A DNA stretch of 37,684 bases from an uncultured Candidatus Saccharibacteria bacterium (GCA_964361905.1 CAYICK010000001.1:1-37684), one strand, 5' to 3'. Shown: positions 20,633 to 35,935, numbered from the stretch's first letter. Notes: generated from the sequence alone by a model not told the origin. Program-made: numbers and translations.

Positions 20633-22093
20633 TTATTTTTTATCTAAAAATCCAAGAAAAAATCTGAATCCCTTAAGGTATCTTTTTATATCTTCCCAGC
20701 TATTTATTTTTTTTAACCGGCCCCAAATATATTTTGGCCGAAGATAAAATTCTTTCATGGCCATCTTTTCCATCGCCTCAATTTCTTCCTTGTTTTTGTA
20801 GCCATATGGCACGAAAACCGCATTCCAGATATTGTATTCGGAAAAATTTTTATTCAAGATTCCATATTTGGGCGCTTCTTCAAAAAGTTTCGTCCCTGGA
20901 TAAGGAGTGGTGATGCAAAACTGGGCATAATCGGGATTTAATTTTTTAGCAAAAGCTATCGTCTTTTTCGCCATTTCTGGAGTCTCTCCGGGCAGAGCAA
21001 TCATAAAAGATGCTCTGATTTCTATACCAACCTTCTTACAAAGCATATTGGCGATTTCTATCTGTTTAAGGGTTGTCCCTTTGCCTATGTTGTTTAAAAG
21101 TTCCTGACATCCCGACTCGTAGCCGAAAAAAATATTCCAACAACCCGCTTTTCTCATGCGACGGAGCATTTCTTCGTCAACGCAGTCAACCCGTGAATAG
21201 CAAGTCCAGGTAATATCAATTTTGTCTTTAATTAATAAATCGCAAAATTCGTATATCCATTTTTTATTGGCCGTCATCATGTCATCCCAAAAAGATATTT
21301 CTCTGATGCCGTAATTTTCCATTACATGCCGGATTTGTTCCACCACTCTTTTAGGACTCATAGCTCTGATTTTTCTGCCAAAAACGGAGTTGTTGGAGCA
21401 AAAACTGCAATTAAATGGACATCCTCTTATAACCACCATGTTTATCACAGGTGTCCTTTTATATTGGTTGGCTAGGGGAATATATTTATTCATCGACAAA
21501 AGATCCCAGGCGGGGAATGGCAGTTCGTCCAGATTTTGAATCAACTCTCTTGGGGGCGTGATCACAATTTCTTTTCCGTGCCTGAATACGATTCCTTTTA
21601 CGCTAGATAGAATATTGTAATTATTTAAAAATACATTTTTACTCCAAGTGCTGTTTTTGTATTTACTGATTATTTCTTCGGCCGTAAGCTCTCCCTCTCC
21701 GTAAACAATTAAATCAAAACAATCATTCTGTTCCAATATTTCCCTCGGTAAAATCGTGGCGTGATGTCCGCCCAAAATAATTAAAATTTCCGGCTTTCTT
21801 TTTTTCATTAGATCGGCAAATTCGACTGCTCGGTGAAAATTCGGAGTCAAGGCCGAAAGCCCTATGATTTTGGGGTCATACTCAAGCGCTTTTTCAACCA
21901 TTTGATCAGTTGAAAAATCTTCGGTCACGCCGTCAATCAAACCGACTTTAACTCCTTTTTCTCTGAGATAAGAAGAAAGCTGGGCGATTCCCAGGGGCGG
22001 CAAATTACCGCCGGTACCTTTTCCCACATTTCTGACGTATCTTTCGCTAACGGAAATTGGAGGATAAATAAATAAAATATCCATACTACTCAT
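20633..22093 (-). CDS. B12-binding-domain radical SAM enzyme (class-B-like), paralog 2
   Basis: 486 aa. Motifs ILGGHHATILPREIL, IVYGEGELTAEEI and IRGCPFNCSFCSN. The gene is convergent with GT-C paralog 1, with a 3-nt gap. Confidence 0.88.
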   Translation of the reverse strand: MSSMDILFIYPPISVSERYVRNVGKGTGGNLPPLGIAQLSSYLREKGVKVGLIDGVTEDFSTDQMVEKALEYDPKIIGLSALTPNFHRAVEFADLMKKRKPEILIILGGHHATILPREILEQNDCFDLIVYGEGELTAEEIISKYKNSTWSKNVFLNNYNILSSVKGIVFRHGKEIVITPPRELIQNLDELPFPAWDLLSMNKYIPLANQYKRTPVINMVVIRGCPFNCSFCSNNSVFGRKIRAMSPKRVVEQIRHVMENYGIREISFWDDMMTANKKWIYEFCDLLIKDKIDITWTCYSRVDCVDEEMLRRMRKAGCWNIFFGYESGCQELLNNIGKGTTLKQIEIANMLCKKVGIEIRASFMIALPGETPEMAKKTIAFAKKLNPDYAQFCITTPYPGTKLFEEAPKYGILNKNFSEYNIWNAVFVPYGYKNKEEIEAMEKMAMKEFYLRPKYIWGRLKKINSWEDIKRYLKGFRFFLGFLDKK

Positions 22094-22151: not shown

Positions 22152-22871
22152 ATGTCAAAAAATATGCTTTCCATTATCATTCCGGCGTACAACGAGGAAT
22201 ACCGTATAACTAGGACTTTGTTGGATATCAAAAACACCCTGTCCGGACAATTCTTTGATTACGAAATTTTAGTGGTGAATGACGGCTCTTTGGATAATAC
22301 CGTTTTTGTCGTGGAAAAGTTAAAAAAACAAATTCCTAAGCTTCGTTTAATCGATAACAATAAAAATCACGGCAAAGGCTTCGCAGTTAAGGAAGGTATG
22401 CTTAAAGCCTCTGGTGATTTTCGGTTATTTATGGATGCTGATAATTCCACAAAAGTTTCGGAAATTATAAAAATACTCCCTTATTTTGCCCGGGGTTTTG
22501 ATATTATTATAGGTTCCAGGCGTCTCCCTGACTCTAAAGTTGTAATTGAACACAATTGGGTGAGAGACTTCCTGGGTTCTGTTTTCAGAATGCTTGTTCG
22601 CGTAATTGTTCCTTTGGGGGTTACCGATTCACAGTGTGGTTTTAAAATTTTTACAAAAAAGGCGGCAAATATGATATTCCCAGAACAGTCTGTACTTGGT
22701 TGGGCTTTTGATGTGGAGATTTTGGCTATTGCCAGAAAAAATAAATTAAAGATAAAAGAGGTTCCCGTTGTCTGGGAAAATAATGCAGACAGCCAAATGA
22801 ATTTTTCCGGTATGGTCAAATCCTTTTTTGAAATTATTAAAATCAGACTGAAGTTATGGAGAATAAAATGA
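22152..22871 (+). CDS. GT2 glycosyltransferase, Alg5/Dpm1/GtrB-like (polyprenyl-phosphate sugar synthase type)
   Basis: 239 aa. Motifs LSIIIPAYNEEYRI, ILVVNDGSLDNT, FMDADNST and DSQCGFKIF. Confidence 0.85.
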   Translation: MSKNMLSIIIPAYNEEYRITRTLLDIKNTLSGQFFDYEILVVNDGSLDNTVFVVEKLKKQIPKLRLIDNNKNHGKGFAVKEGMLKASGDFRLFMDADNSTKVSEIIKILPYFARGFDIIIGSRRLPDSKVVIEHNWVRDFLGSVFRMLVRVIVPLGVTDSQCGFKIFTKKAANMIFPEQSVLGWAFDVEILAIARKNKLKIKEVPVVWENNADSQMNFSGMVKSFFEIIKIRLKLWRIK

Positions 22872-24574
22872 CGAGATGGCTTCGCACAAGCGAGAAGGTT
22901 TTACCGGTTATTTTGGTGTTAGTTTTTATTTTAATGCGCTTGCCGGCAACTCATTCTCCTTATCACCAAGATGAATATAAATGGGTGCAATATTCTCATC
23001 CGGAAATAACACTACCTGGTACGGTACCTCATCCGCCGTTAACAGAATTTATCTATGCTGGTTCTTTGGGGCCTTTGGTTGGCGATGATAATTTTAGATT
23101 AATACCACTTGTTTTTGGTTTGATTAATCTGCTCCTTATTTTTTATCTGGCAAAAATTATTTTTGACCGGAAAGCCGCATTCTGGGTGGCTCTACTTTTT
23201 ACCGTTTCTTTTTATTCCGTTCTGGCCTCTCTTATGGTAGATGTGGATGGGGCAGTAATGCCGGCGTTCTTTTTAGTTATGTGTATCGGCTATTTCAAAT
23301 TAAAAAGAACGAATTTTCAATTTTCAATTTCCAATTTTCAAAACTGGATTTGGTTGGCGCTGATAATAGTCGGAGCGGTCGGAGGGTTTATGGTAAAAGT
23401 CAGCGGTATTCTGCCAATTTTCGCTTTATTTTTGGATTTTTCTATAGAAAAAGGCGTTTTTTCTGATAAAAAGAGAATTCTTAAATATGCGGGTCTGGGG
23501 TTATTGGGGCTTATTGGTTTGGTTGCGGTTTTGTTTTTGGCAAGGTTTGTTTTTCCGTTCTTCAACCTGGAGTATTCGTTCAATTATTGGAAACATTTTT
23601 GGACCGCATCCAGTTTTTTTAATAGGGGATGGATGCAGACTTTTATCCAATTTGCTAAGGCTATAATGTATACCTCGCCCCTATTGCTCTTGCCGGTATT
23701 TTTTATAGATAAAGAAATTTGGCGAAAACTTAGGCCCTTCTTTTTCTTTATTTTCATCGGTCTCGCATTCTATCTTTTTGCTTTTGATTTTTCTATCGGG
23801 GCGCTGGACAGATATTTCCAATTTTTAGTAGTACCTCTTTGTATTATTTCGGGGGCCGTATTCGCGAAAATATTTGGAAGCAAAGAAATAAAGTTAAAAA
23901 AAGAAGATTTTATTATTATATCCATAATAGCAATTTCAATTTTTGCTCTTCAGTTTTTCAATCATGTTGCGCCGCCACTTCATCCTAAGACGGAATGGAT
24001 AAGCAGATTCTTTTCTTTTAAGTGGAATTTCCTTTTCCCCTTTACCGGCGGATCCGGGCCTCTGGGTTTTTATATTTCTTTTCTTTTTTTGGCCATACTA
24101 TATATTTGTTCTATTGTTCTTGCGATTGCAATATTTATTAAAAAAGAGCTGAAGCAGAAAGTTTTCGTCGCAATTTTAATCATAGGTCTGATTTACAATT
24201 TTTCTTTTATCGAAGAATATCTTTTTGGCAAAATAAACGGTTTTGCTCCTAAATTGCTTTACGATGCCACGGAATTTATAAAAAACAATCCTGATATAAA
24301 AGCCGTAACGGTTTATAATGATAACGGAGGTTATGAAATAATGAAAATCGGGAAGTATAGAAGAAGGCTTTATACCAGCCCCGCTTTTGATGTAAATCAG
24401 AAAATAGCCACCTTAAATGCGACCAAAGATTATTACCTGGAAATAAATATTCCACGGATAGACCCAAACAGCGTTTTCAGGAAATATTTTGATTCATGCA
24501 ATATTGTTTATAAGCAAACTGACCGTTATATTTCTGCCATTGTTTACGATTGTAGAAATGCAACCAATTTATGA
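22868..24574 (+). CDS. Multi-TM GT-C-type glycosyltransferase (ArnT/PMT family-like), paralog 2
   Basis: About 568 aa from ATG 22868 (ATGA overlap with the GT2 stop); an in-frame ATG at 22856 is also possible. An acidic pair follows TM1 (SPYHQDEYKW). Many TM helices. Confidence 0.72.
   Translation: MTRWLRTSEKVLPVILVLVFILMRLPATHSPYHQDEYKWVQYSHPEITLPGTVPHPPLTEFIYAGSLGPLVGDDNFRLIPLVFGLINLLLIFYLAKIIFDRKAAFWVALLFTVSFYSVLASLMVDVDGAVMPAFFLVMCIGYFKLKRTNFQFSISNFQNWIWLALIIVGAVGGFMVKVSGILPIFALFLDFSIEKGVFSDKKRILKYAGLGLLGLIGLVAVLFLARFVFPFFNLEYSFNYWKHFWTASSFFNRGWMQTFIQFAKAIMYTSPLLLLPVFFIDKEIWRKLRPFFFFIFIGLAFYLFAFDFSIGALDRYFQFLVVPLCIISGAVFAKIFGSKEIKLKKEDFIIISIIAISIFALQFFNHVAPPLHPKTEWISRFFSFKWNFLFPFTGGSGPLGFYISFLFLAILYICSIVLAIAIFIKKELKQKVFVAILIIGLIYNFSFIEEYLFGKINGFAPKLLYDATEFIKNNPDIKAVTVYNDNGGYEIMKIGKYRRRLYTSPAFDVNQKIATLNATKDYYLEINIPRIDPNSVFRKYFDSCNIVYKQTDRYISAIVYDCRNATNL
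23312..23339 (+). repeat. Four tandem copies of heptanucleotide AATTTTC (third copy AATTTCC) inside the GT-C paralog 2 gene
   Basis: Direct reading: aattttc aattttc aatttcc aattttc. The unit length is not a multiple of 3. Confidence 0.9.
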
Positions 24575-25992
24575 AAAAAGTTTTATTGATTTATCCGACA
24601 AGTTCCATAGAAGCATTTTCACGTTCTAAAATTAGCGTTGCTATTCCGCTTATTCCCTATATTTCTTTAGCCAGTTTGGCTGGCGCCTTGCTTGCGGCAA
24701 AACAAGAAGTAAAAATTTTGGATTTGAGCGCTTCTTCCGAACCGGAACAAGAGTTTTATTCCATTATAAATGATTTTAAGCCGGATTATGCGGGTATAAG
24801 TTTTACCAGCGCCCTGAGTAAGGAAGCGGGCGAATTGGCGAAGAAAATTAAAGAGATAGATCAAAAGATTGTGGTGATTGGGGGCGGGGTTCATGCTACT
24901 ACATTGCCGGAAGAAACATTAAAAAAATACGATTTTGACATAGCGGTAGTTGGTGAAGGTGAAGAAACTATAGTTGAGATAGTCAATGGTAAAAATCTAA
25001 AGGATATTTTAGGCATTGTTTATAAAGACAAAGATGGGATTCATTCCAATTCTCGCCGGCCGCTCATTGCAAATTTGGATGATTTACCTATGCCCGCTTG
25101 GCATCTTTATAATCTGTCCAAATACCATACCCCAAGGATTAATGCCAGAAAAAACCCGGTAGGAGCGATAGAAACAAGTCGAGGGTGTCCTTTCGGTTGC
25201 TGTTTTTGCAATAAAACTGTTTTTGACAAAGTTTTTAGAGCCAAGTCGCCGAAGCGGGTCGTTGATGAAATGGAAGCAATGTTAAGCCTTGGTTTTAAGG
25301 AAATTCACATCTGGGAAGATGGTTTTTCAACCAATTTGAATAGAGCCAAAGATATTTGCCGTCTGATTATAAAGAGAGGGCTGCACTTTCCTTGGAATAT
25401 ATATAACGGAATGAGAATAGACCGTTTGGATGAGGAGTTGTTAAGGCTTCTGAAAGAGGCGGGGTGTTACCGCACCAGTATCGGTGTTGAGTCTGGCAAT
25501 GAAAAAGTTTTGTCCGGTTTGGGCAAAAATATTACTTTGAATCAGATAAGAAGGTCAGTAAAACTTATAAAAAAATCCGGTGTTGAATCGCTGGGGTTTT
25601 TTATGGTTGGTTTGCCGGGGGATACCGAAGAATCTATGCGGGATACTATTAATTTTGCCAAGGAACTGAATCTTGATTTAGCCAAGGTGGGGATTTTGAT
25701 GCCTCTCCCCGGGACGCCTGTTTTTGCGGATTGGGATAAAAAAGGGCTTATTGTTTCCAAAGATTGGTCAAAGTATATTTTCCACGCAGATATTAGTCCT
25801 GTTTATAAACACCCCAATTTGGATTACAAAACAATTCGCCGGTATTACGATAAGTTTTATCAGGAACTTTATCTCAGCCCCAAATTCATTGCAAAAAGAT
25901 TGTGGCGCGGATTGAAAACCGGCGATGTTATATGGGATGCTTATTATTTTTTAAAAACATTACCACATGGATGGTTCTCAAAAAAAGAATAA
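24571..25992 (+). CDS. B12-binding-domain radical SAM enzyme (class-B-like), paralog 3
   Basis: 473 aa. Motifs VIGGGVHATTLPEETL, AVVGEGEETIVEI and SRGCPFGCCFCNK. ATGA overlap with GT-C paralog 2. Confidence 0.88.
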   Translation: MKKVLLIYPTSSIEAFSRSKISVAIPLIPYISLASLAGALLAAKQEVKILDLSASSEPEQEFYSIINDFKPDYAGISFTSALSKEAGELAKKIKEIDQKIVVIGGGVHATTLPEETLKKYDFDIAVVGEGEETIVEIVNGKNLKDILGIVYKDKDGIHSNSRRPLIANLDDLPMPAWHLYNLSKYHTPRINARKNPVGAIETSRGCPFGCCFCNKTVFDKVFRAKSPKRVVDEMEAMLSLGFKEIHIWEDGFSTNLNRAKDICRLIIKRGLHFPWNIYNGMRIDRLDEELLRLLKEAGCYRTSIGVESGNEKVLSGLGKNITLNQIRRSVKLIKKSGVESLGFFMVGLPGDTEESMRDTINFAKELNLDLAKVGILMPLPGTPVFADWDKKGLIVSKDWSKYIFHADISPVYKHPNLDYKTIRRYYDKFYQELYLSPKFIAKRLWRGLKTGDVIWDAYYFLKTLPHGWFSKKE

Positions 25993-27397
25993 AAAGGCTG
26001 TTATCATAGGCGCAGGACCGGCTGGTCTGGCCGCAGGATACGAACTCAGTAAGCATGGGGTCGAAACTGTTATTTTGGAAAAAAGCGATTCCGTCGGTGG
26101 CTTAGCCAGAACTATCGAACATGAAGGATATCTTTTTGATGTCGGTCCTCATCGTTTTTATACCAAGAGCAAGATAGTGGGGGATTTGTGGCAAAACCTT
26201 CTGGGGCCGGATTTTTTAATTGTTCCTCGGTTGACCAGAATTTTTTACCGCAAAAAATTTTTTTCTTATCCGGTTAAACCTTTTCAAGTTTTGTTGAATT
26301 TGGGGCCAGTGACCAGTGCCTTGGTTATGATAAGTTACATAAAATCCAAAATTTCCCTCCGCAATCTCAAGCCCAAAACTTTTGAAGAATGGATAACAAA
26401 AAATTTCGGTTCGCGTCTCTTTGAAATGTTTTTTAAAACTTATACCGAAAAAGTGTGGGGTATTCCTTGTGATCAAATCGGCGCGGAATGGGCGTCGCAA
26501 AGAATTAAAAACTTGAGCTTCTGGTCAACCCTGTGGAACGCTTTTGGCAGCATAAAAGGCAAAGATGTCAAAAGTTTGATTGAAGAGTTTAATTATCCCA
26601 AGTACGGCGCGGGTATGATGTATGAAAAAATGGCGGAAGAAATAAAAAAAAATGGCGGGCAAATCCTATTTGGCGAAGATGTCAGCTCAATTGAATACAA
26701 AGATAATCAAATAATTTCTGTAACCAGCCGTGGAGCGATTGGCGGGAATAAAAAATGGCAAGCGGGTTATTTTTTTTCCAGTATGCCCATGACCGAGCTG
26801 GTTAAAAAAATGTCACCTATACCTTTGCCGGAAATTGGTAAAGCTGCAAATAGTCTTTATTTTCGGTCTCATATAGCGGTTAATTTGATAGTAAAAAAAG
26901 CAAATCCTTTCCCCGATAATTGGATATACATACACGAACCTGATATAAAAATGGCGAGACTGTCTAATTTCAAGAATTTTTCAAAGCATATGTCCAAAGA
27001 TGACAATACTCCGGTCTGCTGTGAATATTTTGTTTTTAAAGATGATGAAATGTGGCGTAAATCAGATGAAGAACTTAAAATTTTGGCCTCTAATGAACTG
27101 GAAAAATTGGGTTTTTTGGAGGAAGGCGATGTTGTGGGGGGATTTGTGGTCCGTGAAGAGTTTGCATACCCGACTTATTACATAGGGCACAAAAAACCTT
27201 TTGAAATGATTAAAAATTTTTTCAGGAAGTTTAAAAATATTACACTTATAGGACGAGGAGGCACGTACCGTTATAACAATCAGGATCACTCTTTGGAAAT
27301 GGGAATCTTGGCCGCCAGGAGTATTATTGAGAGCAAGGAATATGATTTGGATAAAATAGGGGACGAGCAAGAATATTATGAAGAACATAAAGGATAG
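25967..27397 (+). CDS. FAD/NAD(P)-binding flavoprotein oxidoreductase (amine-oxidase / UDP-galactopyranose-mutase / HemY-like superfamily)
   Basis: 476 aa with the dinucleotide-binding motif KAVIIGAGPAGLAAGYELSKHG..ILEK. It overlaps rSAM paralog 3 by 26 nt. Confidence 0.78.
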   Translation: MDGSQKKNKKAVIIGAGPAGLAAGYELSKHGVETVILEKSDSVGGLARTIEHEGYLFDVGPHRFYTKSKIVGDLWQNLLGPDFLIVPRLTRIFYRKKFFSYPVKPFQVLLNLGPVTSALVMISYIKSKISLRNLKPKTFEEWITKNFGSRLFEMFFKTYTEKVWGIPCDQIGAEWASQRIKNLSFWSTLWNAFGSIKGKDVKSLIEEFNYPKYGAGMMYEKMAEEIKKNGGQILFGEDVSSIEYKDNQIISVTSRGAIGGNKKWQAGYFFSSMPMTELVKKMSPIPLPEIGKAANSLYFRSHIAVNLIVKKANPFPDNWIYIHEPDIKMARLSNFKNFSKHMSKDDNTPVCCEYFVFKDDEMWRKSDEELKILASNELEKLGFLEEGDVVGGFVVREEFAYPTYYIGHKKPFEMIKNFFRKFKNITLIGRGGTYRYNNQDHSLEMGILAARSIIESKEYDLDKIGDEQEYYEEHKG

Positions 27398-29771
27398 AAA
27401 TAAAATTCTGGCTTTGATTTTTATCACGCTGGCTATTTATCTGCCTTTTTATTTTTGGACTATCAAAACAGCTGATCTTCAGACTGCAAATGGTTCTGCT
27501 GTTGTATTACCAGTTGTGGGAGAAGATTCTTTGGAATATAAGATATTGGCGGAAAATATGATTTCAGCTAAACAATTCTCATTGGATTCATTAGCGCCTT
27601 CTGTACTAGAGACCTTTCGTACGCCAGGTTACCCTCTTTTCCTGGCTTTTTTTAAAACAATTTTTAATAATTATTGGCTGGCGACACTTGTTCAGATCAT
27701 GCTCACGGCTTTGACGGCTGTCATTATCTTCAAAATCGGCCAAAAAATATTCAATTGGCAAACCGGATTTGTCGCCGCTCTTCTCTATATAATCGAGCCG
27801 TCTGTCATTATGCAAAGCATCCTCGTTTTATCGGATAATTTGTTTATGTTTTTATTTATACTCTTTATCTATCTCCTGTTTTTTGCGGAGAAACATCATG
27901 CCTGGTTCATTGCCGGTTCGGCTGGGGCCGTACTGGGAGTGGCCACTTTGGTCAGGCCGGTTTCGGTTTTCATACTCATTCTTCTTGCCCCGTTATATTG
28001 GCTGATTGAAAAGAAAAATATTCCTATTAAAAAAATAATACTTGTATTTGGTACTGTTGCAGTGTGTTATTTGGTAGTGGTCGTACCTTGGATGGCCAGG
28101 AATTATAAAGTGAGTCGTGTTTTCAACATCTCTTCTTTGATCGCTTTTAACCCGATTTATTACAATGTGCCGGATTTTTTGTCTTCTAAATCAAGCAAGA
28201 GTCCGGATTATTTCAGAGCGCAGCTTATAGGCGAAGCGGGTGATCTTTCGGAGAGGGAGTTGCGTTCGCTTTCAAATTCAGACAGGATTTTGGCAGTCGC
28301 TTTAAAATATATAAAAGAAGATCCTGTCGGCTATTTAAAATTCCATTTGATTAAAACTCCACCCTTCTTCTTTTCGTCAAGTATAAAAACTTTTCAAGAT
28401 TTTTCCAGCCGGCTTCTTCCGAGCAATAAAATATCTTCCGATATTCAAACCCATAAAGCCATTCTTTCCGATCTTTTTGCTAAAGGGCAGTTTGTGGATA
28501 TGTTTGGTGTCATTATGAAATCAGCCTGGTACATCACTTTTGAGAGAATATTGTGGTTAGTAATATTATTTTTATCTTTTGTTCCCTTGTTATTTAAGAA
28601 ACAAAGATTGTATGCTGTTCTTTTTCTTTCCTTAATTTTTTATTTCGCTCTGCTTACTGGCCCGGTGGCTTATGCCAGGTACAGGTTGCCGGCCGAACCT
28701 TTCATGTTTCTTTTGGCATCAATTGGAGGAGCTATGATAATAAAATATTTATATGGTATTCTGGTAATTATGAGAAAGACTCTGGGAGTGTTTACTGACA
28801 AAAATTCAGGCATATTTCACCGTTTTACGGATTTTTTTCGGGGTATCTTCATTAACACAACTGAAGACAAACGCCCCAAAATACTCATAACCGGCGGATT
28901 GGGTTTTATTTTCTCGCACGTTACGGAATATTATGTGAAAAAAGGATGGAACGTCGTTGTTATAGACAACCAATCGGAAGGCTCGCACCCGGAAATCATA
29001 GACGGATCTTTTAAATATCACAATTTTCACGTTGCAGATCCTAAAGTGGTTGATATTATTCTTAGAGAAAATCCGGATTATGTGATACACGCTGCGGCCA
29101 TATCTGATGTAGACTATTCTATTCGCGAATCGTATAGGACGCTCAAAAAAAATATAATGATGAATATAAATGTTTTTGATGCCTGCAGGCAATTAAAAAA
29201 TTTGAAGAAGTTTATTTATGTGGCAACGGATGAAGTCTATGGAGAATGCGATCACAAAAAAAGAGAAGATGAGGTCATGTCTCCCAGAAATCCATATTCA
29301 TGTTCAAAAGCGACAGGCTCTCTCATAAGGATTGCTTACGATAGTACTTATTCAGAGTTGAAGAACAAAACAGCAGAGACAAGATTTTGCAATGTATTTG
29401 GTCCAAGGCAGGATGAAAGGAAAATAATGGGGGCGATAAAAAAATCTTTAAAAACGGGCGACTCCATTCCGCTTCATAATGAAGGTACGGGTTTCCGCGA
29501 ATATATTTACGTCAAAAATATACCGCCGGCAGTTGATTTGATTTTGGAAAAAGGCAATCAAGTTTATAATGTAACTCTGAATAATGGCTATACTGTGAGG
29601 CAACTCTTGCAAAAAGTTGAGGAGGTAACCGGCAACAAAATAAATACTTACTCAAATAACCGACCAGGTATGGATATGAAATATCAAATGGACAACTCGC
29701 GCATATTGGGTCTTGGCTGGGAACCTCTCTATACGTTTGAAGAAGGATTAAAAGAATATTTATTATCATGA
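27378..29771 (+). CDS. Fusion protein: GT-C-type membrane glycosyltransferase (aa 1-~460) + NAD-dependent 4,6-dehydratase/epimerase-type SDR (aa ~490-797)
   Basis: The N-terminal multi-TM part has GEDSLEYK after TM1 and TFRTPGYPLFLAFF (PMT_2-like). The C-terminal part has KILITGGLGFIFSHV (GxxGxxG), YVATDEVYGEC and PYSCSKATG (YxxxK). One uninterrupted ORF, with an internal in-frame ATG at 28770. Confidence 0.8.
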   Translation: MKNIKDRNKILALIFITLAIYLPFYFWTIKTADLQTANGSAVVLPVVGEDSLEYKILAENMISAKQFSLDSLAPSVLETFRTPGYPLFLAFFKTIFNNYWLATLVQIMLTALTAVIIFKIGQKIFNWQTGFVAALLYIIEPSVIMQSILVLSDNLFMFLFILFIYLLFFAEKHHAWFIAGSAGAVLGVATLVRPVSVFILILLAPLYWLIEKKNIPIKKIILVFGTVAVCYLVVVVPWMARNYKVSRVFNISSLIAFNPIYYNVPDFLSSKSSKSPDYFRAQLIGEAGDLSERELRSLSNSDRILAVALKYIKEDPVGYLKFHLIKTPPFFFSSSIKTFQDFSSRLLPSNKISSDIQTHKAILSDLFAKGQFVDMFGVIMKSAWYITFERILWLVILFLSFVPLLFKKQRLYAVLFLSLIFYFALLTGPVAYARYRLPAEPFMFLLASIGGAMIIKYLYGILVIMRKTLGVFTDKNSGIFHRFTDFFRGIFINTTEDKRPKILITGGLGFIFSHVTEYYVKKGWNVVVIDNQSEGSHPEIIDGSFKYHNFHVADPKVVDIILRENPDYVIHAAAISDVDYSIRESYRTLKKNIMMNINVFDACRQLKNLKKFIYVATDEVYGECDHKKREDEVMSPRNPYSCSKATGSLIRIAYDSTYSELKNKTAETRFCNVFGPRQDERKIMGAIKKSLKTGDSIPLHNEGTGFREYIYVKNIPPAVDLILEKGNQVYNVTLNNGYTVRQLLQKVEEVTGNKINTYSNNRPGMDMKYQMDNSRILGLGWEPLYTFEEGLKEYLLS

Positions 29772-30802
29772 TTAAATTATTTAAACCGTATGTTTCTTGG
29801 TGGTCCGTGTGGAATGTCGTCAAAGTGCTCCGAGGCACTCAGCTCGCTGAAGGCCCGTTGGTTAAAGAATTTGAGAGACAATTTGCCGAAAAGTTCGGAT
29901 TGTCCAATGTGTTAGCGGTCAATTCCGGCACAGCGGCGCTTGAACTTGCTTATGAAGTTGCCGGCATAGGTCCGGGAGATGAAGTGGTCACCACGGTATT
30001 CACTTGCACAGCTACCAATATTCCGCTTATTCACCGCGGAGCAAAAATTATTTTTGCCGATATTGATTCTGATTTGAATATTTCCGTTGAAGATGTAAAG
30101 AAAAAAATTACACCCAAAACCAAAGCTATTGTTTTTGTTCATTTTGGCGGTAACAACAGGGGATTGAAAGAATTACTTGAAATTGCAAAAGAAAAGAAAA
30201 TAATTTTGATAGAAGATGCCGCTCAAGCCGTAGGCTCCGATTTTTGGGGAAAAGCCGATTTTACTTGCGTATCTCTGCAAGCTATAAAAGCGCTGACCTC
30301 GGGCGACGGCGGGATGCTTGCTTGCAAAAACATAGAACATTATAAAAAAGCAAAAAGATTGCGCTGGTTCGGGTATGACAGAGATGAGAAACAAAAAAAA
30401 GGCGACACGGACCTGCTTGAAGCCGGCTATAAATATCATATGAACGATATCACTGCCGCTATCGGACTCGGTAATATGAAAGTAATAGGTAAGATAATAG
30501 ATCACAGAAAAAAATTGATTGAAGCTTATAAAAGCCACGGCATCAAGGCTTACCCGTGGTTTGCCGTGGTGATGACGAATCGCCGTAAGGAACTTATCGC
30601 CTATCTCAAAGAGAATGGGGTAGAATCCGGCATGCACCATTACAGGAATGACCAATACACTATATTTGGCGGCAGAAAAGCATTCCTAAATATGGACGCG
30701 CTGGAAAATGATTATTTGCTTTTGCCTCTGCATATGGATGTATCGGTTAGTGACGTTTCTATGATCGCAAACCTTATTAAAGAGTTTAATAGTAAAAAAT
30801 AA
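29768..30802 (+). CDS. DegT/DnrJ/EryC1/StrS-family PLP-dependent sugar aminotransferase
   Basis: 344 aa. Motifs VNSGTAALELAYEVAG and EDAAQAVGS, and SLQAIKALTSGDGGML with the candidate PLP lysine. ATGA overlap with the upstream fusion gene. Confidence 0.85.
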   Translation: MIKLFKPYVSWWSVWNVVKVLRGTQLAEGPLVKEFERQFAEKFGLSNVLAVNSGTAALELAYEVAGIGPGDEVVTTVFTCTATNIPLIHRGAKIIFADIDSDLNISVEDVKKKITPKTKAIVFVHFGGNNRGLKELLEIAKEKKIILIEDAAQAVGSDFWGKADFTCVSLQAIKALTSGDGGMLACKNIEHYKKAKRLRWFGYDRDEKQKKGDTDLLEAGYKYHMNDITAAIGLGNMKVIGKIIDHRKKLIEAYKSHGIKAYPWFAVVMTNRRKELIAYLKENGVESGMHHYRNDQYTIFGGRKAFLNMDALENDYLLLPLHMDVSVSDVSMIANLIKEFNSKK

Positions 30803-30803
30803 T

Positions 30804-31631
30804 ATGAAAAAAATTGCAGTAATCGCAGGTGGGTGGCATTTTCCAATAGGATTTTTTGAGCAGATTGCAAACCAAAAAATTCCGGCGGGGTGGACTGCCG
30901 ATTTATTCTTGGTATCTCATAGAGATCCCTCTTACGCTATAGAAGAAAAAAAAGAAACACTTGCTAAATTGGGTTATACACGCAGAGAATTATATGACCG
31001 TATTTTGTATCGAAAAGTGGCGACTGTGGCAGATATGGAAGCGCTCGGCTGGAAATACACTTTAGAGCCCAATACTATGGGCGACTTCGGCAATACCAAT
31101 CAGTGGCTTGAAAAAAATGATTATAAACAGTATGACAAATTGCTCATAACTCATGATGATAATTTTATTTTGACTGGCAATATGTTTATGGATATCCTGC
31201 CTCAGGATGACTGGTTGATTTTAACTAATTCTACAGGTAATGCCCAGAGAAGACTCAGGCAGTATTTGGGACTGCCCAAACCATTTGGTCTCCGTGGCTC
31301 GTTTGAATTTTTCACCCGAGAAATGATGGACACTCTTGGCGGCTCTTTTGATTTGTCCCGCACGACTCTCACGAGAGAAGGCCAGTTTAATACGACCATG
31401 GACATGACGGAACTCACTGACTGGAACCAGAACGATAAGCCGCTACGCGACTTGATTATAAAAAATAATCTTTTGCCAAAAATTAAATCCCTATCTCCGT
31501 TTTATCGCATGAGCAAATATTGCTTGGAAGGCGAACGGGGATACATATTTAAAACTGAAAAAAGCAATACGAAGGAAGAGGAGAAAGGACTTGATATGAT
31601 TGAGAAATTATACGAGAAAAAACTTTCATAA
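30804..31631 (+). CDS. Hypothetical protein, no family recognised
   Basis: 275-aa ORF in an operon position between the aminotransferase and a methyltransferase. N-terminal KIAVIAGGWHFP and a central LLITHDDNF. No TM segment and no motif I can name. Confidence 0.7.
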   Translation: MKKIAVIAGGWHFPIGFFEQIANQKIPAGWTADLFLVSHRDPSYAIEEKKETLAKLGYTRRELYDRILYRKVATVADMEALGWKYTLEPNTMGDFGNTNQWLEKNDYKQYDKLLITHDDNFILTGNMFMDILPQDDWLILTNSTGNAQRRLRQYLGLPKPFGLRGSFEFFTREMMDTLGGSFDLSRTTLTREGQFNTTMDMTELTDWNQNDKPLRDLIIKNNLLPKIKSLSPFYRMSKYCLEGERGYIFKTEKSNTKEEEKGLDMIEKLYEKKLS

Positions 31632-31636
31632 TATAC

Positions 31637-32341
31637 ATGCCAGAATTTAAAAATAAAACCATGCGCGAGATTGCTCAAAATAAAAAATTTGGAGTAATCA
31701 GAAAATTGGAAAATTATTATAACGAATATGACATAATGTTTTCTCGTTTCCGGGATAATCCCATAAATCTTCTTGAGATTGGCGTCCAAAAAGGGGGGTC
31801 AATTGCCACATGGCTAGAATACTTTCCTAAAGCGCATATAGTCGGGATCGATATTGACCCGGAGTGCAAACAGTATGAGCGCGATGGCGCAAAGATTTAC
31901 ATCGGTTCGCAGGAAGATGCAAATTTTCTTAAAAAAGTTGAAAAATCAGAGGGCCCGTTTGATATCGTGATTGACGACGGGGGGCACACAATGAAGCAAA
32001 ACTTAACGACGTTTAATACATTATTTCCTCTTTTAAAAGAAGACGGAATATATGTAGTTGAAGATCTGCACACTTCATATTGGGGAAAATTTGGCGGCGG
32101 TTTGCATAAAGGGAGAACCATGATAAATAGGATAAAGCATCTGATTGATGATATGCATTATTGGGCAACCGACCACCCGCGAGTGAATATTTTTAAAAAA
32201 ATAAAACATAAACTTTCCAACACACCGCACGGTAAAGCTTCAAATGTATTTGAGGAAACTGTCAGGTCGATATACATTGCCGATAGCATATGTTTTGTGA
32301 GGAAAGGAAAAATTGATAAAGATATAACGAATAAAATATAA
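31637..32341 (+). CDS. Class I SAM-dependent methyltransferase (Methyltransf_24 / CmcI-like)
   Basis: 234 aa. Motifs LLEIGVQKGGSIATWLEYF, HIVGIDID and FDIVIDDGGHTM..DGIYVVEDL. Confidence 0.78.
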   Translation: MPEFKNKTMREIAQNKKFGVIRKLENYYNEYDIMFSRFRDNPINLLEIGVQKGGSIATWLEYFPKAHIVGIDIDPECKQYERDGAKIYIGSQEDANFLKKVEKSEGPFDIVIDDGGHTMKQNLTTFNTLFPLLKEDGIYVVEDLHTSYWGKFGGGLHKGRTMINRIKHLIDDMHYWATDHPRVNIFKKIKHKLSNTPHGKASNVFEETVRSIYIADSICFVRKGKIDKDITNKI

Positions 32342-32348
32342 ATACACA

Positions 32349-33470
32349 ATGAAATTTGCCTACATCGCAAATACCGGATTAGCCAACGAATGGGCGCATT
32401 CGGTCCAAATAATGAACATGTGCAAAGCCTTTAGTGATATAGGCGCGGATATAACACTTGTGGTTCCAAAAAGGAGTTTTTTAAAGGAAGACCCGTTTGA
32501 ATATTATAAAATACATAAAACTTTTTCTATAAAAAAATTACCCTGTATTGATTTGCTGGTTGGCAGCCCGCACCCGCTTTTCTACTGGCTTCGATTAGTT
32601 TCTTTTTATATTTCAGCTAGATTTTATATATGGTTTAAGCATTTTGATATCCTGTACTCCAGAGATTTGTATTCAGCATTATTTTTTCCGGGCATTATTT
32701 TGGAACAGCATTCGTTCCCAAAGGAAATATCGCTCCAACATAAATTTATGTTTTCTTTGGCAGAAAAGCTGGTAGTGCTCACTTCGTTTATAAAGGATAG
32801 ATTTGTTACTGTAGGTGTGCTGGCCGGCAAAATCCTCGTTGCCTCTGACGGGGTGGATTTGGATAAGTTTAAAAATTATTCCAGCCACTTTGAAATCGGA
32901 GGCCTTTCGGAAAAAGATTTTGTGTATGGTTACATAGGCACATTAAAAACTATGGGCACAGAAAAGGGAGTAGCCGATGGCCTGCAGGCCCTCAAAAAAC
33001 TTCCATCGGAGTATAAATTTTTAGTTATAGGAGGTGAAAAACCGGACGTTGAGTATTATAAAGACATGTCTCTTAAATTAGGCGTTTTCGGCAGGGCGAT
33101 TTTTATCGGCCAGGTTGCTTATTCCGATATTCCAAAATATGCTTCAAAATGCGATGCGCTCATCGCGCCTTTTCCAAAGAATGAACATTATAGTTTTTAT
33201 ATGTCACCACTCAAAATTTTTGAATATATGGCCGGTAAAAAGCCTATTATAACTACGGATTTGCCATCGCTTAAAGAAGTGCTAACTGACGGAAAAAACG
33301 CTCTGTTGGTGCCTCCTGGCGATCCACAGGCTCTGGCAGACGCCATTATAAAAATCAAAGGAAATCCCGAATATGGCAAGAAACTGGCTGAGAGGGCTTA
33401 CCGGGACGTATCGGAAAAATATACTTGGAAAACAAGGGCAGAAAAAATTATCTCGTTTATACAATCTTAA
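32349..33470 (+). CDS. GT-B fold glycosyltransferase, family 4-like
   Basis: 373 aa. Motifs YIGTLKTMGTEKGV and SPLKIFEYMAGKKPIITTDLPSLKEVL. Confidence 0.82.
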   Translation: MKFAYIANTGLANEWAHSVQIMNMCKAFSDIGADITLVVPKRSFLKEDPFEYYKIHKTFSIKKLPCIDLLVGSPHPLFYWLRLVSFYISARFYIWFKHFDILYSRDLYSALFFPGIILEQHSFPKEISLQHKFMFSLAEKLVVLTSFIKDRFVTVGVLAGKILVASDGVDLDKFKNYSSHFEIGGLSEKDFVYGYIGTLKTMGTEKGVADGLQALKKLPSEYKFLVIGGEKPDVEYYKDMSLKLGVFGRAIFIGQVAYSDIPKYASKCDALIAPFPKNEHYSFYMSPLKIFEYMAGKKPIITTDLPSLKEVLTDGKNALLVPPGDPQALADAIIKIKGNPEYGKKLAERAYRDVSEKYTWKTRAEKIISFIQS

Positions 33471-34171
33471 TTAATAAGTGAATACAACCTGTCAGAAATT
33501 TTTTGCAGATTTTCAAAATTAAACTCCCGTCTCTGGTCGGTGGTTTTTTTGTTTTTACATATGAGGAGAACGTGGCGGTTCTGAGAGCGGAACGAACAAG
33601 TTAGATATTCAAGTCGGCTCAAAAACCATGAGAAAATCCTGAAAGGCAAAAGATTGGCTATAGGATGCGAACCGAGATAACCGTTCTGCTCAAAAAAGCG
33701 CTCATATATAAAACTTATGAAATTTCTGTAATATATTTTTTTAACGTAGTTAAAATTATTCTCTAACAGTTTTAATTCTTCGCCAAAATCGTCAGACAAA
33801 GATAATTCACAAATGAAATTACCCTGAGGAGTCGTAATTCGCGAAAGCCCAGAGATTGCCCGAAGTCTCCTTTGAGGCGGTAAGTAATTGAGAGTATTTG
33901 TTGAAACAACGACGTCTATGCTATTTCCCGCAACAGCGTCGAGATTTGCTATATCAGCATGCAAGCCGAGAGTTTTGGAGTCAGGGTATTTTTTAAGGCC
34001 GATTTCAAGTGATGCTCGATCAATATCAAGCCCGATATACACATCGGTCTTAAACATATGCCTATTTTTCATCCCGGCAGAAGCTGCATCCAAACCGACC
34101 CCGCTTTTTATTTTGGAAAGTTCTTTTTGCAAAACCGGAAAGATAAAATTTTTTGAAGGCCTTGTATACAT
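33467..34171 (-). CDS. Class I SAM-dependent methyltransferase
   Basis: 234 aa. Motifs GVGLDAASAG, VYIGLDID and IDVVVSTNTLNYL. Its 3' end overlaps the convergent GT4 gene by 4 nt. Confidence 0.72.
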   Translation of the reverse strand: MYTRPSKNFIFPVLQKELSKIKSGVGLDAASAGMKNRHMFKTDVYIGLDIDRASLEIGLKKYPDSKTLGLHADIANLDAVAGNSIDVVVSTNTLNYLPPQRRLRAISGLSRITTPQGNFICELSLSDDFGEELKLLENNFNYVKKIYYRNFISFIYERFFEQNGYLGSHPIANLLPFRIFSWFLSRLEYLTCSFRSQNRHVLLICKNKKTTDQRREFNFENLQKISDRLYSLIN

Positions 34172-34302
34172 TTATTTAAATATTACCCCGATTCCGGCCC
34201 AATTTTGGTTAGGATTTTCAATTAATTCTTTGTAATTTTTTCCAACTTTAACTTCGTCCCAAAATTTATCCGCATCGCATCTCTCTTTGTGTTTGCAAAC
34301 AT
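34172..34302 (-). pseudogene. Relic 3' end of a methyltransferase gene (copy 1 of a 131-bp direct repeat)
   Basis: 122 of 131 nt are identical, without indels, to 35805-35935. On the minus strand it translates to VCKHKERCDADKFWDEVKVGKNYKELIENPNQNWAGIGVIFK-stop. A TAG lies upstream in frame and there is no start codon. Its TAA abuts the ATG of the 33467-34171 gene. Confidence 0.85.
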
Positions 34303-34313
34303 TTATTGTTTTA

Positions 34314-35699
34314 TTAATTAACTATGAAATAACTCAGACAAGCCTTGTTTTTAGAAACATTAGCACTGGATTTTATAGTAAAACTTGTACCTGCTGTGCG
34401 GGAATTTACACTGTAATTACGATTCGTTCCTGTGTTACAAGTGATTTCCAAGCGCGAACTGAGAGATGAGTCTTCTGTGATAAATATCTGACTATTTGCG
34501 GTCACAGCGGTTGTATCTACAACTAGAGTACTACCACCTGTATCCATCGCCACATTTCCAGCGGAAGCCGAACCACAAACCGCAGGTGATGCGGTTGAGG
34601 CACAATTTGAATTTGTACTCATACTATTAGCAGAAATATTGCCATTCACATCGAGGGTGGCTACTGGTGTGCTTGTTCCAATGCCAACCCTGCTGTTAAT
34701 TATCATGTTTTGTCCAGAGCGACCGAAAGTCATTGTCGTTGTCAGAGATGTTCCAAAATTAAGCGCTCCGTTTGTTATTGAATCAATCATTCCCCCTACT
34801 TGCATTAGCAGATTACCAGACGTAAGAGCGACATTGGAGCCATCATCTGACAGTAAAGAATCACCTATTACTAATGCACCGGTAAATTTTACGATTCTGT
34901 TTGTTGTCCCTGATCCAGTAACTGAATAAGTCGGGGGAGTCGGTGTTGAATTAAATGGATATGAAAGTCCTGCACTGTCGTTATAAAGCGCTGTTACCTC
35001 AGTTGGGGTTAACACCCTATGCCAAAAACCCACTTCATCTATTGAACCATCAAAATCGTACGGAGCCCAAGTTAAATCACCCCCCACAAGAAAGGCCGAA
35101 CTCGTTTGACCTATACTAGTTGCTGTTCCGCTTTTTGCGGACATACTTTGTGCTACCCCATTTTTATAAATAATTCCGCCTGTTGCAGAACTTGAGTCTA
35201 ATGTCCAAACTAAATGAACCCAGGTGCCAATATCTGAACTGGTTAAAAGATTGGTTGCGTACCATTGACCATAATCATCGCCATTGTAAAAGGTTGCATA
35301 AGCATTTGGGGGTTGGAGGTTCAATATGTAGGAATTTCCATTGACATCTGATTTGCGGATGAGCTCATATACCACCGAAGGAACTGAAGCCAGTTTCACC
35401 CACATTGAGACCGAAAAGACATCTGTCATCCCCAACCCTATTTGAGCGGCATCGGTAATAGAAAAATACTGATTACTAGCATTAATCAAATTTGTTGCAT
35501 TATTTATTTTTCCAGCACTAAATCCCACCGAATTATTGTTAGTTAAATTGTTTGAACCAACACTGTCGGTAGTATTTCCTGATGATTCGTCAAATTTCCA
35601 ATACGAGACCAAATTGTCAGTGAGCGCCGCTGATGCTGAAACAGGAAGAACAGCTAAAACAAAAAGCGCTAATGGCACGAAAACAGTTAATTTCTTCAT
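34314..35699 (-). CDS. Secreted LamG (concanavalin-A-like lectin) domain protein with a Ser/Thr/Gly/Asn-rich fibre-like C-terminal half
   Basis: 461 aa with signal peptide MKKLTVFVPLALFVLAVLPVSASA. LamG_3-type motifs LVSYWKFDESSGNTTDSVGSNNLT and GSIDEVGFWHRVLTPTEVTALY. The C-terminal half contains VGIGTSTPVATLDVNGN and four Cys. Confidence 0.85.
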   Translation of the reverse strand: MKKLTVFVPLALFVLAVLPVSASAALTDNLVSYWKFDESSGNTTDSVGSNNLTNNNSVGFSAGKINNATNLINASNQYFSITDAAQIGLGMTDVFSVSMWVKLASVPSVVYELIRKSDVNGNSYILNLQPPNAYATFYNGDDYGQWYATNLLTSSDIGTWVHLVWTLDSSSATGGIIYKNGVAQSMSAKSGTATSIGQTSSAFLVGGDLTWAPYDFDGSIDEVGFWHRVLTPTEVTALYNDSAGLSYPFNSTPTPPTYSVTGSGTTNRIVKFTGALVIGDSLLSDDGSNVALTSGNLLMQVGGMIDSITNGALNFGTSLTTTMTFGRSGQNMIINSRVGIGTSTPVATLDVNGNISANSMSTNSNCASTASPAVCGSASAGNVAMDTGGSTLVVDTTAVTANSQIFITEDSSLSSRLEITCNTGTNRNYSVNSRTAGTSFTIKSSANVSKNKACLSYFIVN

Positions 35700-35752
35700 A
35701 AATTTAATATTAAAGTTCTATTAAGCATAGTTAATTTTAATAGACCCCAGAC

Positions 35753-35760
35753 ATTATACA
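35753..35760 (-). promoter_or_regulatory. Candidate extended -10 box (TGTATAAT on the minus strand) for the LamG gene
   Basis: The reverse complement of 35753-35760 reads TGTATAAT. It lies about 54 nt upstream of the ATG at 35699. A TTGACT (35785-35790) is also present but is 26 bp away. Confidence 0.3.
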
Positions 35761-35804
35761 ACTTAATATGGTGTATAAAAAAGGAGTCAATCGATTTTTG
35801 GCAA

Positions 35805-35935
35805 TTATTTGAATATTACCCCGATTCCGGCCCAATTTTGATTAGGATTTTCAATTAATTCTTTGCAATTCTTGCCAACTTTAATTTCGTCCCAAAATTT
35901 ATCCGCATCGCATCTTTCTCTGTGTTTGCACACAT
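35805..35935 (-). repeat. Copy 2 of the 131-bp direct repeat (functional 3' end of the 502-aa methyltransferase gene)
   Basis: Offset is exactly 1633 nt from copy 1, with 9 mismatches (6 synonymous, 3 non-synonymous in the shared frame). Confidence 0.9.

Follow-up and report, generated by a model that had tools for sequence, protein, structure and literature searches.

Why should a membrane glycosyltransferase whose predicted active site faces outwards share one polypeptide with a short-chain dehydrogenase/reductase (SDR) of the kind that uses nucleotide sugars on the inner side of the membrane? This question is raised by a single open reading frame (ORF) of 797 amino acid (aa) residues in a stretch of 37,684 nucleotides (nt) from an uncultured Candidatus Saccharibacteria bacterium (GCA_964361905.1 CAYICK010000001.1:1-37684), which was analysed as a whole and is here called the window. 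Close homologues of the proteins encoded by the window all derive from metagenome-assembled genomes of Patescibacteria (candidate phyla radiation, CPR), and the window is a gene-dense surface-glycan locus of one groundwater population of these bacteria. Patescibacteria are ultra-small, mostly uncultured episymbionts and, to our knowledge, almost nothing is known biochemically of their surface glycans. In the reading that we favour, at a probability of roughly 0.55, the ORF is a genuine, lineage-specific fusion created by stop loss, by which the initial step of amino-deoxysugar synthesis is tied to a glycosyltransferase of the GT-C type at the inner face of the membrane.

A single frame is open from position 27378 to 29771, with no in-frame stop, while the same span is interrupted by 53 stops in frame 2 and by 43 in frame 3. 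The ORF and its parts are as follows.

27378-29771, + strand: GT-C::SDR ORF, 797 aa (ORF list, frame analysis, and Pfam PMT_2 plus Epimerase/GDP_Man_Dehyd)
27378-28784, + strand: GT-C module, aa 1 to about 469, with ten predicted transmembrane (TM) helices, both ends inside, and an extracytoplasmic helical domain at aa 247-383
27519-27542, + strand: GEDSLEYK in the first predicted extracytoplasmic loop, aa 48-55, the D50 codon being 27525-27527
27615-27653, + strand: FRTPGYPLFLAFF, aa 80-92, comprising juxtamembrane helix 2 (modelled as helix 84-96) and R81-x-P-G-Y-P, the signature of the family
28770-28790, + strand: candidate internal starts of a free SDR, ATG 28770 (M465) and GTG 28788 (V471)
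28785-28868, + strand: linker, aa ~470-497, within which the AlphaFold2 (AF2) model places a helix (GIFHRFTDFFRGIF, aa 478-491)
28869-29771, + strand: extended-SDR domain, aa ~498-797 (Pfam, NCBIfam and structural matches)
28887-28919, + strand: NAD motif GGLGFIFSH, within aa 504-514
29223-29246, + strand: catalytic T-D-E in ATDEVYGE, aa 616-623
29295-29309, + strand: YSCSK, aa 640-644

Each of the sequence features that the first-pass annotation of this DNA had described (the 797-aa ORF, its motifs and domains, and an ATGA overlap with the next gene) was recovered in its place. The Pfam run, which covered 29 of the 44 ORFs that reach 100 aa, namely the long ones presumed to be genes, matched PMT_2 (PF13231) at aa 82-238 with 48.1 bits (cut-off 26.1), and Epimerase and GDP_Man_Dehyd at aa 502-793 with 150 and 146 bits, respectively. 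The histories of the two halves contrast: stand-alone homologues of the SDR half, about 302 aa long and 66-83% identical to it, number in the hundreds, while the GT-C half, whose relatives are nearly all 440-480 aa long, has no relative closer than 42% in the protein collection (83% for the SDR half). Judged by sequence, neither half resembles a decaying gene and both appear functional.

The fold of the GT-C half was modelled by AF2 on an alignment of 112 homologues, which also served for the analyses of conservation and charge described below. This GT-C-only model (pLDDT 93.2, pTM 0.93) was used instead of an earlier full-length model built on a mixed alignment, which was poor over aa 180-500 (pLDDT 72). 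It begins with TM1 and a pair of juxtamembrane helices, continues with TM2-TM7 and a soluble helical domain of about 140 residues (aa 247-383), and ends with TM8-TM10 and the linker helix. A Foldseek search with the model placed ArnT (5f15) first (E 2e-5, probability 1.0), followed by STT3, AglB, PglB, Pmt4 and AftB; as TM-scores to the solved GT-C enzymes reach only 0.35-0.48, the protein is a true but distant member of the group. The above-threshold PMT_2 match and these fold matches bear out the GT-C identity that had been proposed for the N-terminal half. At least 90% of the 112 members share D50 and Y54 in the first loop as well as R81, P83, G84, Y85 and P86, and all family-invariant residues are retained in the window protein (D50, Y54, R81, PGYP, R193-P194, W238, R241-N242, R434 and P438). 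On this pattern of conservation, D50 in the first outer loop is a candidate catalytic acid. The sugar donor of the GT-C half would be linked to polyprenyl phosphate.

The density of lysine and arginine (K/R) over the 11 segments of the 112 sequences (0.21, 0.06, 0.20, 0.00, 0.17, 0.08, 0.26, 0.10, 0.20, 0.15 and 0.27) alternates between successive loops, which by the positive-inside rule places both the N- and the C-terminus inside; the value of 0.06 for the loop carrying D50 is consistent with an outside location. Cytoplasmic nucleotide-sugar domains also stand straight after TM10 in several GT-C homologues, namely GT9 in three divergent representatives (P0268, P0290 and P0347), GT4 (the named homologues with this partner being P0353 and P0004) and GtrA+GT2 (P0325), and one homologue carries GT4 ahead of TM1; in these proteins no extra TM helix stands between the modules. 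Both predicted ends of the GT-C half being inside, and relatives carrying cytoplasmic domains at the same C-terminus, the SDR is predicted to lie on the cytoplasmic side. The topology check suggested with the first-pass annotation, in which the alternative was an extracytoplasmic SDR, thus gave the same cytoplasmic prediction from the model, the K/R density and the fused relatives.

With regard to the chemistry of the SDR, the best NCBIfam model was TIGR01181 (dTDP-glucose 4,6-dehydratase), at 178 bits and below its trusted cut-off of 365.1. The GalE model TIGR01179 gave 119.8 bits (cut-off 262.3), and decarboxylase models scored low (31 bits for PRK11908 and 26 bits for ArnA). The ATDEVYGE motif aligns with STDEVYG of DesIV, RfbB (B. 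anthracis) and PH0414 (P. horikoshii), and YSCSK with YAASK; the near-invariant residues of the SDR homologues (GGLGF, T-D-E and YxxxK) are all present in the window protein. The Rossmann fold was modelled confidently by AF2, and the best structural match was the RmlB-like PH0414 (2hun), with EvdS6 among the better matches. In the NAD motif GGLGFIF the third glycine of GxxGxxG is a phenylalanine (F74), which at least 90% of the aligned SDR family share. The aligned 4-epimerases lack the Asp-Glu pair (SSSAVYGE in 6dnt; STGGAIYGE in 2p5u and 4zrm), and a simple 4-epimerase of the GalE type was ruled out by the presence of this pair in the SDR. The proposal that the SDR is of the dehydratase type therefore held in so far as T-D-E and YxxxK set it apart from 4-epimerases. 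It did not hold as an exclusive assignment, since EvdS6, a characterised NDP-glucuronate decarboxylase, carries T126-D127-E128, Y150 and K154 (PMC10338323). Being shared with this decarboxylase, the motifs are necessary, not sufficient, for a 4,6-dehydratase, and the authors of that work state that the SDR subclass is not safely readable from sequence (PMC10338323). The SDR would most likely be an RmlB-like, NAD-dependent 4-oxidising enzyme acting as an NDP-hexose 4,6-dehydratase.

Stand-alone SDR homologues themselves vary at the N-terminus. Among the SDR homologues P0145-P0236, 33 of 106 close ones begin with a basic extension of 18 aa or more (18-31 aa, with one of 60 aa), which precedes the Rossmann fold; about half of the extensions follow the pattern MIxxLIRxIRxKI..., and such an extension could be a membrane-association helix. 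In one 589-aa homologue (P0256), whose N-terminus is apparently cut by the contig end, the C-terminal SDR part runs straight into a GT4 domain. The linker of the fusion was compared with these extensions and the likeness was rejected: MIIKYLYGILVIMRK resembles MIVYLIRIFREK by eye, but a hidden Markov model built from 16 extensions gave no match. Amphipathicity of the linker helix was likewise discarded as a lead, its hydrophobic moment of 0.64 lying within background (maximum 0.68).

Whether the join is real was considered at the level of the junction itself. Aligned GT-C homologues end at aa 462-468, that is at the internal ATG 28770, and frame 2 contains a TAA at 28765 and a TGA at 28771 (ATGA), so that an insertion or deletion (indel) of 1 nt within 28744-28764 would restore two ordinary genes; substitution in a codon such as TAT at 28752 is an alternative single change with the same outcome. 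A base-calling or consensus error, either such an indel or a change of TAA to TAT at 28752, could have merged two genes in this manner. The candidate region for the indel lies near an A4 run (28742-28745), one change would give a GT-C protein ending in W* followed 2 nt later by ATG 28770, and the fusion protein is a singleton. However, the ENA contig Hain_H43_01um_R1_4811 (9,695 bp) is 100% identical to window 26346-36040 and encodes the same 797-aa gene. The existence of this separately deposited, identical contig makes chance or an assembler quirk an unlikely source of the join, and the two contigs are likely independent; two deposited assemblies thus agree over 9.7 kb including the junction, albeit with a coverage of only 4 in the R1 contig. 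Logan single-run contigs and an R2 contig matched the flanks only and stopped short of the junction. In addition, the ORF map of the whole 37.7-kb window gave no sign of a split or frameshifted gene, which argues against an error-prone assembly, and an in-frame junction in non-repeated sequence is not explicable by a chimeric join. Taken together, we regard an artefact as very improbable.

A further contig (L101; ENA Hain_H43_01um_R3_29454, equivalent to window 29170-31866) was considered as an independent haplotype and rejected, being a mosaic inside the SDR that ends before the junction. All of its differences from the window (97 of 97) fall towards the 5' end of its SDR fragment, in a part that looks like a P0146/P0176-like allele, and the rest, including the genes for an aminotransferase (DegT) and a conserved 275-aa protein (unk275), is 100% identical. 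It represents either a recombinant haplotype of the same aquifer or a chimera, assembled at low coverage, whose parts meet inside the conserved SDR gene. As a mosaic of the same SDR it counts in favour of flawed assemblies at this locus, and hence of the artefact.

A different possibility is that the sequence is real and the fusion functionally neutral, the ribosome reading through the GT-C part into the SDR after a recent loss of the stop codon while most active SDR is made free from ATG 28770 or GTG 28788, so that the cell would in practice work with two proteins as before. The former start had been put forward in the first-pass annotation and is plausible, as it is in frame, lies where the GT-C homologues end and has a leader with 20% GC in the 25 nt upstream, the lowest value among in-frame ATGs of the ORF (real starts of this genome average 24%); the GTG is a further possible start that had not been listed. 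A ribosome-binding-site test of the internal start was uninformative, the genome being essentially without Shine-Dalgarno motifs, and for this reason the GGAGGAG before ATG 28734 is not meaningful either. An SDR initiated at M465 or V471 would have an extension of about 33 or 27 residues before PKILITGG, much like the 28-31-aa extensions of many stand-alone homologues; moreover, the relatives all keep the two genes separate, and the lack of other fusions among those searched argues against a selected architecture. On the other hand, in the absence of an upstream stop there would be no coupling of termination and reinitiation, which is apparently how the other overlapping genes of the operon work, and cytoplasmic domains at the same GT-C C-terminus are both tolerated and recurrent in the family. 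A neutral fusion is considered unlikely, though less so than the other alternatives.

The first-pass annotation had not recognised the architecture from described systems, and the searches returned no second case. When 1.84 billion representative proteins were searched exhaustively with phmmer, none matched both halves, although the library is not a complete census, given that the window's own protein was absent from the list. Six-frame analysis of 98 related loci, 18 drawn from the SDR side and 80 from the GT-C side, identified no ORF with both domains, and the lists of SDR and GT-C homologues contained no second GT-C::SDR protein, the relatives keeping the genes separate. One locus (L041), to which a tblastn match extended up to residue 523, was examined as a second fusion and proved to have GT2 as a gene of its own behind the GT-C. 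The literature, searched for CPR GT-C fusions and also for PRK07208, yielded nothing relevant. The domain architecture is thus new among the proteins searched, within a GT-C family that has repeatedly fused cytoplasmic partners at the same terminus.

The genes that flank the fusion place it between two groups of conserved neighbours.

25967-27397, + strand: FAD-dependent 'amine-oxidase-like' protein (NCBIfam PRK07208.1-4, 592 bits against a cut-off of 389), overlapping the start of the fusion ORF by 20 nt
29768-30802, + strand: DegT-family pyridoxal phosphate (PLP) aminotransferase (PF01041, 246.8 bits against 19.8), with an ATGA overlap with the fusion ORF (TCATGATTAA)
30804-31631, + strand: conserved 275-aa protein (unk275), present in 8 of the 18 SDR loci
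31637-32341, + strand: Methyltransf_24 methyltransferase (Pfam; cassette synteny)
32349-33470, + strand: GT4 glycosyltransferase (Pfam; cassette synteny)

That the next gene encodes a DegT aminotransferase was confirmed both by the PF01041 match and by its best solved relatives, which are sugar 4-aminotransferases (4lc3, 4zwv/AtmS13 and CalS13). The lysine in SLQAIKALT aligns with that in SFQALKHLT of 4zwv and is presumably the lysine forming the Schiff base with PLP. DegT directly follows the SDR in 11 of the 18 loci. The unk275 protein had no match in Pfam (even at E values up to 1) or NCBIfam, and a profile search of the PDB was equally empty; its best 120 matches are 61-87% identical, those that carry a source name are all called 'hypothetical protein', and those with a named organism are all from Patescibacteria. 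Relatives were located in L003 (10585-11406), L007 (7913-8743), L020 (9216-10052) and L001 (12364-13191), and the invariant residues include W11-H12-F13, S38-H39-R40, H117-D118-D119-N120 and E242-G-E-R-G246. This protein may perform the remaining step of an amino-sugar pathway. The methyltransferase and GT4 genes are syntenic in L003, L007, L008, L011, L013 and L020; the cassette of SDR, DegT, unk275 and GT4 recurs across Patescibacteria, while the position of Methyltransf_24 varies.

On the other side, the FAD protein adjoins genes of the GT-C family in 23 of the 80 GT-C-side loci, spanning several phyla, and occurs also in L003 (5289-6851) and L006 (7385-8854). NCBIfam names PRK07208.1-4 only as 'hypothetical protein', and the protein together with the GT-C looks like a conserved enzyme pair that has not yet been characterised. 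A weak similarity of the FAD protein to UDP-galactopyranose mutase was also observed. The fusion ORF accordingly sits at the seam of two conserved modules, the one consisting of the FAD protein and GT-C and the other of SDR, DegT, unk275 and GT4.

The loci drawn from the SDR side show how the two modules can approach each other. A GT-C of the same family is found within 6-8 kb of the SDR in 6 of these 18 loci: the order is GT2, GT-C, Methyltransf_24, SDR, DegT, unk275, GT4 in L007 and L008; GT-C directly follows unk275 in L001 and L020; and it lies near the SDR on the opposite strand in L016 and L017. In L003 a different PMT_2 gene stands 61 bp upstream of a separate SDR.

The neighbourhood also bears on the possibility that the SDR is an NDP-glucuronate decarboxylase similar to EvdS6 or ArnA, whose 4-keto-pentose product would be converted by DegT to a 4-amino-4-deoxypentose, a nearer analogue of the Arn route. 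EvdS6 shares T-D-E and YxxxK, is labelled 'dTDP-glucose 4,6-dehydratase' by sequence and is one of the better structural matches (PMC10338323); the best solved relative of DegT, 4lc3, is a putative UDP-Ara4N aminotransferase, and L001 has a gene of the UDP-glucose/GDP-mannose dehydrogenase family about 6.5 kb upstream of its SDR orthologue. Conversely, no sugar dehydrogenase was found by Pfam among the 29 presumed genes of the window, and in L001 and L002 the SDR orthologue is directly followed by an NTP_transferase (similar to glucose-1-phosphate nucleotidyltransferases) and DegT, an arrangement that fits NDP-glucose as the substrate. The TIGR01181 score also exceeds those of PRK11908 and ArnA several-fold. 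A decarboxylase is thus highly improbable, and receives the least weight of the alternatives considered here. The window itself contains no nucleotidyltransferase, as judged by Pfam on the presumed genes and by a phmmer search with the L001 NTP_transferase against six-frame ORFs, in agreement with the earlier remark that an RmlA-like enzyme is missing from it.

The genuine stop-loss fusion that we favour would most likely have originated through the loss of the GT-C stop codon at the seam of the two conserved modules. The resulting protein, if produced and active as such, would comprise a 10-TM GT-C with both ends in the cytoplasm and an active site outside, around D50, which would take a sugar off a donor linked to polyprenyl phosphate and pass it to an acceptor outside the cytoplasm, and a linker of about 30 residues tethering the SDR to the inner membrane face. 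There the SDR would convert NDP-glucose to NDP-4-keto-6-deoxyglucose, and the translationally coupled DegT would aminate this 4-keto product to an NDP-4-amino-4,6-dideoxyhexose. The methyltransferase, unk275 and GT4 of the cassette might then process or transfer the amino sugar. The fusion would in this manner keep the reaction that commits the pathway to amino-sugar synthesis close to the membrane and in a fixed ratio with the GT-C.

A more ambitious version of this scheme, already implied by the first-pass annotation, has the GT-C transferring the product of the SDR. In that case SDR, DegT and unk275 would form a membrane-bound Patescibacteria amino-sugar line docked to the GT-C at the inner face, the GT-C would transfer the same modified amino-deoxysugar to the cell surface, and the substrate would possibly be a polyprenyl-phosphate-linked sugar rather than a free nucleotide sugar. 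If true, this would amount to a cationic, Arn-like change of the cell surface in bacteria that have no lipid A, for which the fusion would be a 'Rosetta stone'. The synteny data weakened the idea: the SDR was a neighbour of the GT-C in none of the 80 GT-C-side loci, compared with 23 for the FAD protein, and it travels with DegT, unk275 and a GT4 that could itself draw on the nucleotide sugar inside the cell. The position of the ORF at the seam of separately conserved modules makes for a weaker case that the SDR product is the donor sugar of the GT-C, and we consider this version decidedly improbable.

As read from the sequence, the fusion is a single point mutation or 1-nt indel away from the two-gene state of its relatives, which fits an origin in one step yet weakens the interpretation put forward in the first-pass annotation. 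Several observations weigh against the favoured stop-loss fusion and need to be set beside it. It is known from one population at low coverage (4x in the second assembly), and reads shared with the R1 contig are possible. The SDR falls short of the RmlB trusted cut-off (178 against 365 bits), its NAD motif is GxxGxxF, and its NVFGPRQD segment is GalE/UXS-like. Not only the SDR but also DegT is rare near the GT-C family (0 and 2 of the 80 GT-C-side loci, respectively); since this family is not generally linked to the SDR cassette, the fusion may join different branches of glycan synthesis. Furthermore, the small GT2 genes of the window are not adjacent to the fused GT-C, both of them abutting other PMT_2 genes. 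As it occurs in a single population, lies one mutation away from the usual two-gene order and combines modules without a general link, the fusion is of limited significance. Within that limit, a natural fusion of a cytoplasmic enzyme with an outward-acting GT-C would provide a testable hint as to which inner and outer steps belong together, a ready-made construct for the topology of a compact 10-TM GT-C, and an entry to the widespread and highly conserved Patescibacteria cassette of SDR, DegT, unk275 and GT4.

The remainder of the window is in keeping with a glycan locus. It begins with the end of a bacterial 23S rRNA gene and a 5S rRNA gene (1-601) and includes three GT-C genes, together with the following glycosyltransferase features.

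15888-17420: GT4 with a GtrA flippase-type domain at its C-terminus
18437-19153: small GT2 (238-239 aa), directly followed by a PMT_2 GT-C, the pair spanning 18437-20629
22152-22871: small GT2 (238-239 aa), directly followed by a PMT_2 GT-C, the pair spanning 22152-24574

Three genes for B12-binding radical-SAM proteins (12492-13979, + strand; 20633-22093, - strand; 24571-25992, + strand), of the HpnJ/BchE/P-methylase-like type, adjoin the glycosyltransferase and GT-C genes, which suggests an unusual C-methylation or rearrangement of sugars. A direct repeat of 134 nt with 93% identity (34169-34302 and 35802-35935, spacing 1,633 nt) brackets a minus-strand Laminin_G_3 gene (34314-35699); the first copy is mostly intergenic and the second overlaps the 3' end of a double Methyltransf_24 gene.

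Among known systems, the closest in composition are the multi-component GT2/GtrA/GT-C systems (GtrABC, CsbB/GtcA/YfhO and the pentofuranose systems; PMC11127046), all part types of which are encoded in the window. A GT2 is also adjacent to the same-family GT-C in L007 and L008, and the GtrA domain of the window is fused to GT4. In this context a cytoplasmic SDR has been documented as an auxiliary enzyme, acting on the sugar ahead of the GT-C step (PMC11127046). Those systems, however, consist of separate proteins, whereas in the window a nucleotide-sugar SDR is covalently joined to the GT-C, and fusions are mentioned neither in that work (PMC11127046) nor in a review of Gram-positive systems. 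A DprE1/DprE2-like epimerase pair of FAD protein and SDR was considered for the window and rejected, as its FAD protein is of the amine-oxidase/PRK07208 type and its SDR of the extended nucleotide-sugar type with T-D-E; such a pair is retained only as part of the improbable reading of a docked amino-sugar line.

The Arn system offers an analogy for the route but not an orthologous one. Its ArnA and ArnB are mirrored by the SDR and DegT, which would likewise make a 4-amino sugar, and ArnT of Cupriavidus metallidurans (PDB 5EZM and 5F15) is the best structural match of the GT-C half. The two are nevertheless only 12-14% identical, with a TM-score of 0.35-0.38, and no ArnT-specific NCBIfam model matched the GT-C half at E up to 0.01, the only GT-C model to do so being NF047440 (28 bits against a cut-off of 200). 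ArnT has 13 TM helices and a periplasmic C-terminal domain, as opposed to 10 TM helices and a predicted cytoplasmic C-terminus, and ArnA carries T-S-E where the window SDR carries T-D-E. Neither the ArnA formyltransferase, the ArnD deformylase nor ArnE/F was detected among the 29 presumed genes (Pfam and NCBIfam), a GtrA domain being present instead. The Arn-like route suggested by the first-pass annotation therefore survives as a combination of SDR, DegT and GT-C, while the GT-C is not an ArnT orthologue and the ArnA formyltransferase, ArnD and ArnE/F were not found. Patescibacteria, moreover, are known to lack lipopolysaccharide.

With RmlB and DesIV, the dehydratases that operate with 4-aminotransferases in the dTDP-viosamine and dTDP-Fuc4N routes, the SDR shares the extended-SDR fold, T-D-E, YxxxK and adjacency to DegT. 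It differs from RmlB in its length (about 300 aa, shorter than classical RmlB), in its GxxGxxF motif and sub-threshold TIGR01181 score, in belonging to a Patescibacteria-specific clade of which 31% of members have a basic N-terminal extension, and in being fused to a membrane protein.

The fusion can finally be set against other joined proteins. The GT9, GT4 and GtrA+GT2 fusions described above involve the same GT-C family, the same point after TM10 and a cytoplasmic partner that uses nucleotide sugars; their partners are glycosyltransferases and recur in divergent representatives, whereas an SDR partner occurs only in the window. PglF, WbpM and CapD are nucleotide-sugar 4,6-dehydratases that N-terminal TM helices anchor on the cytoplasmic side of the membrane, their SDR being of the Polysacc_synt_2 type and their 4-TM anchor having no known catalytic role. 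They provide a precedent for tethering such an enzyme to the inner face of the membrane, while the anchor of the window protein is a complete and apparently catalytic GT-C.

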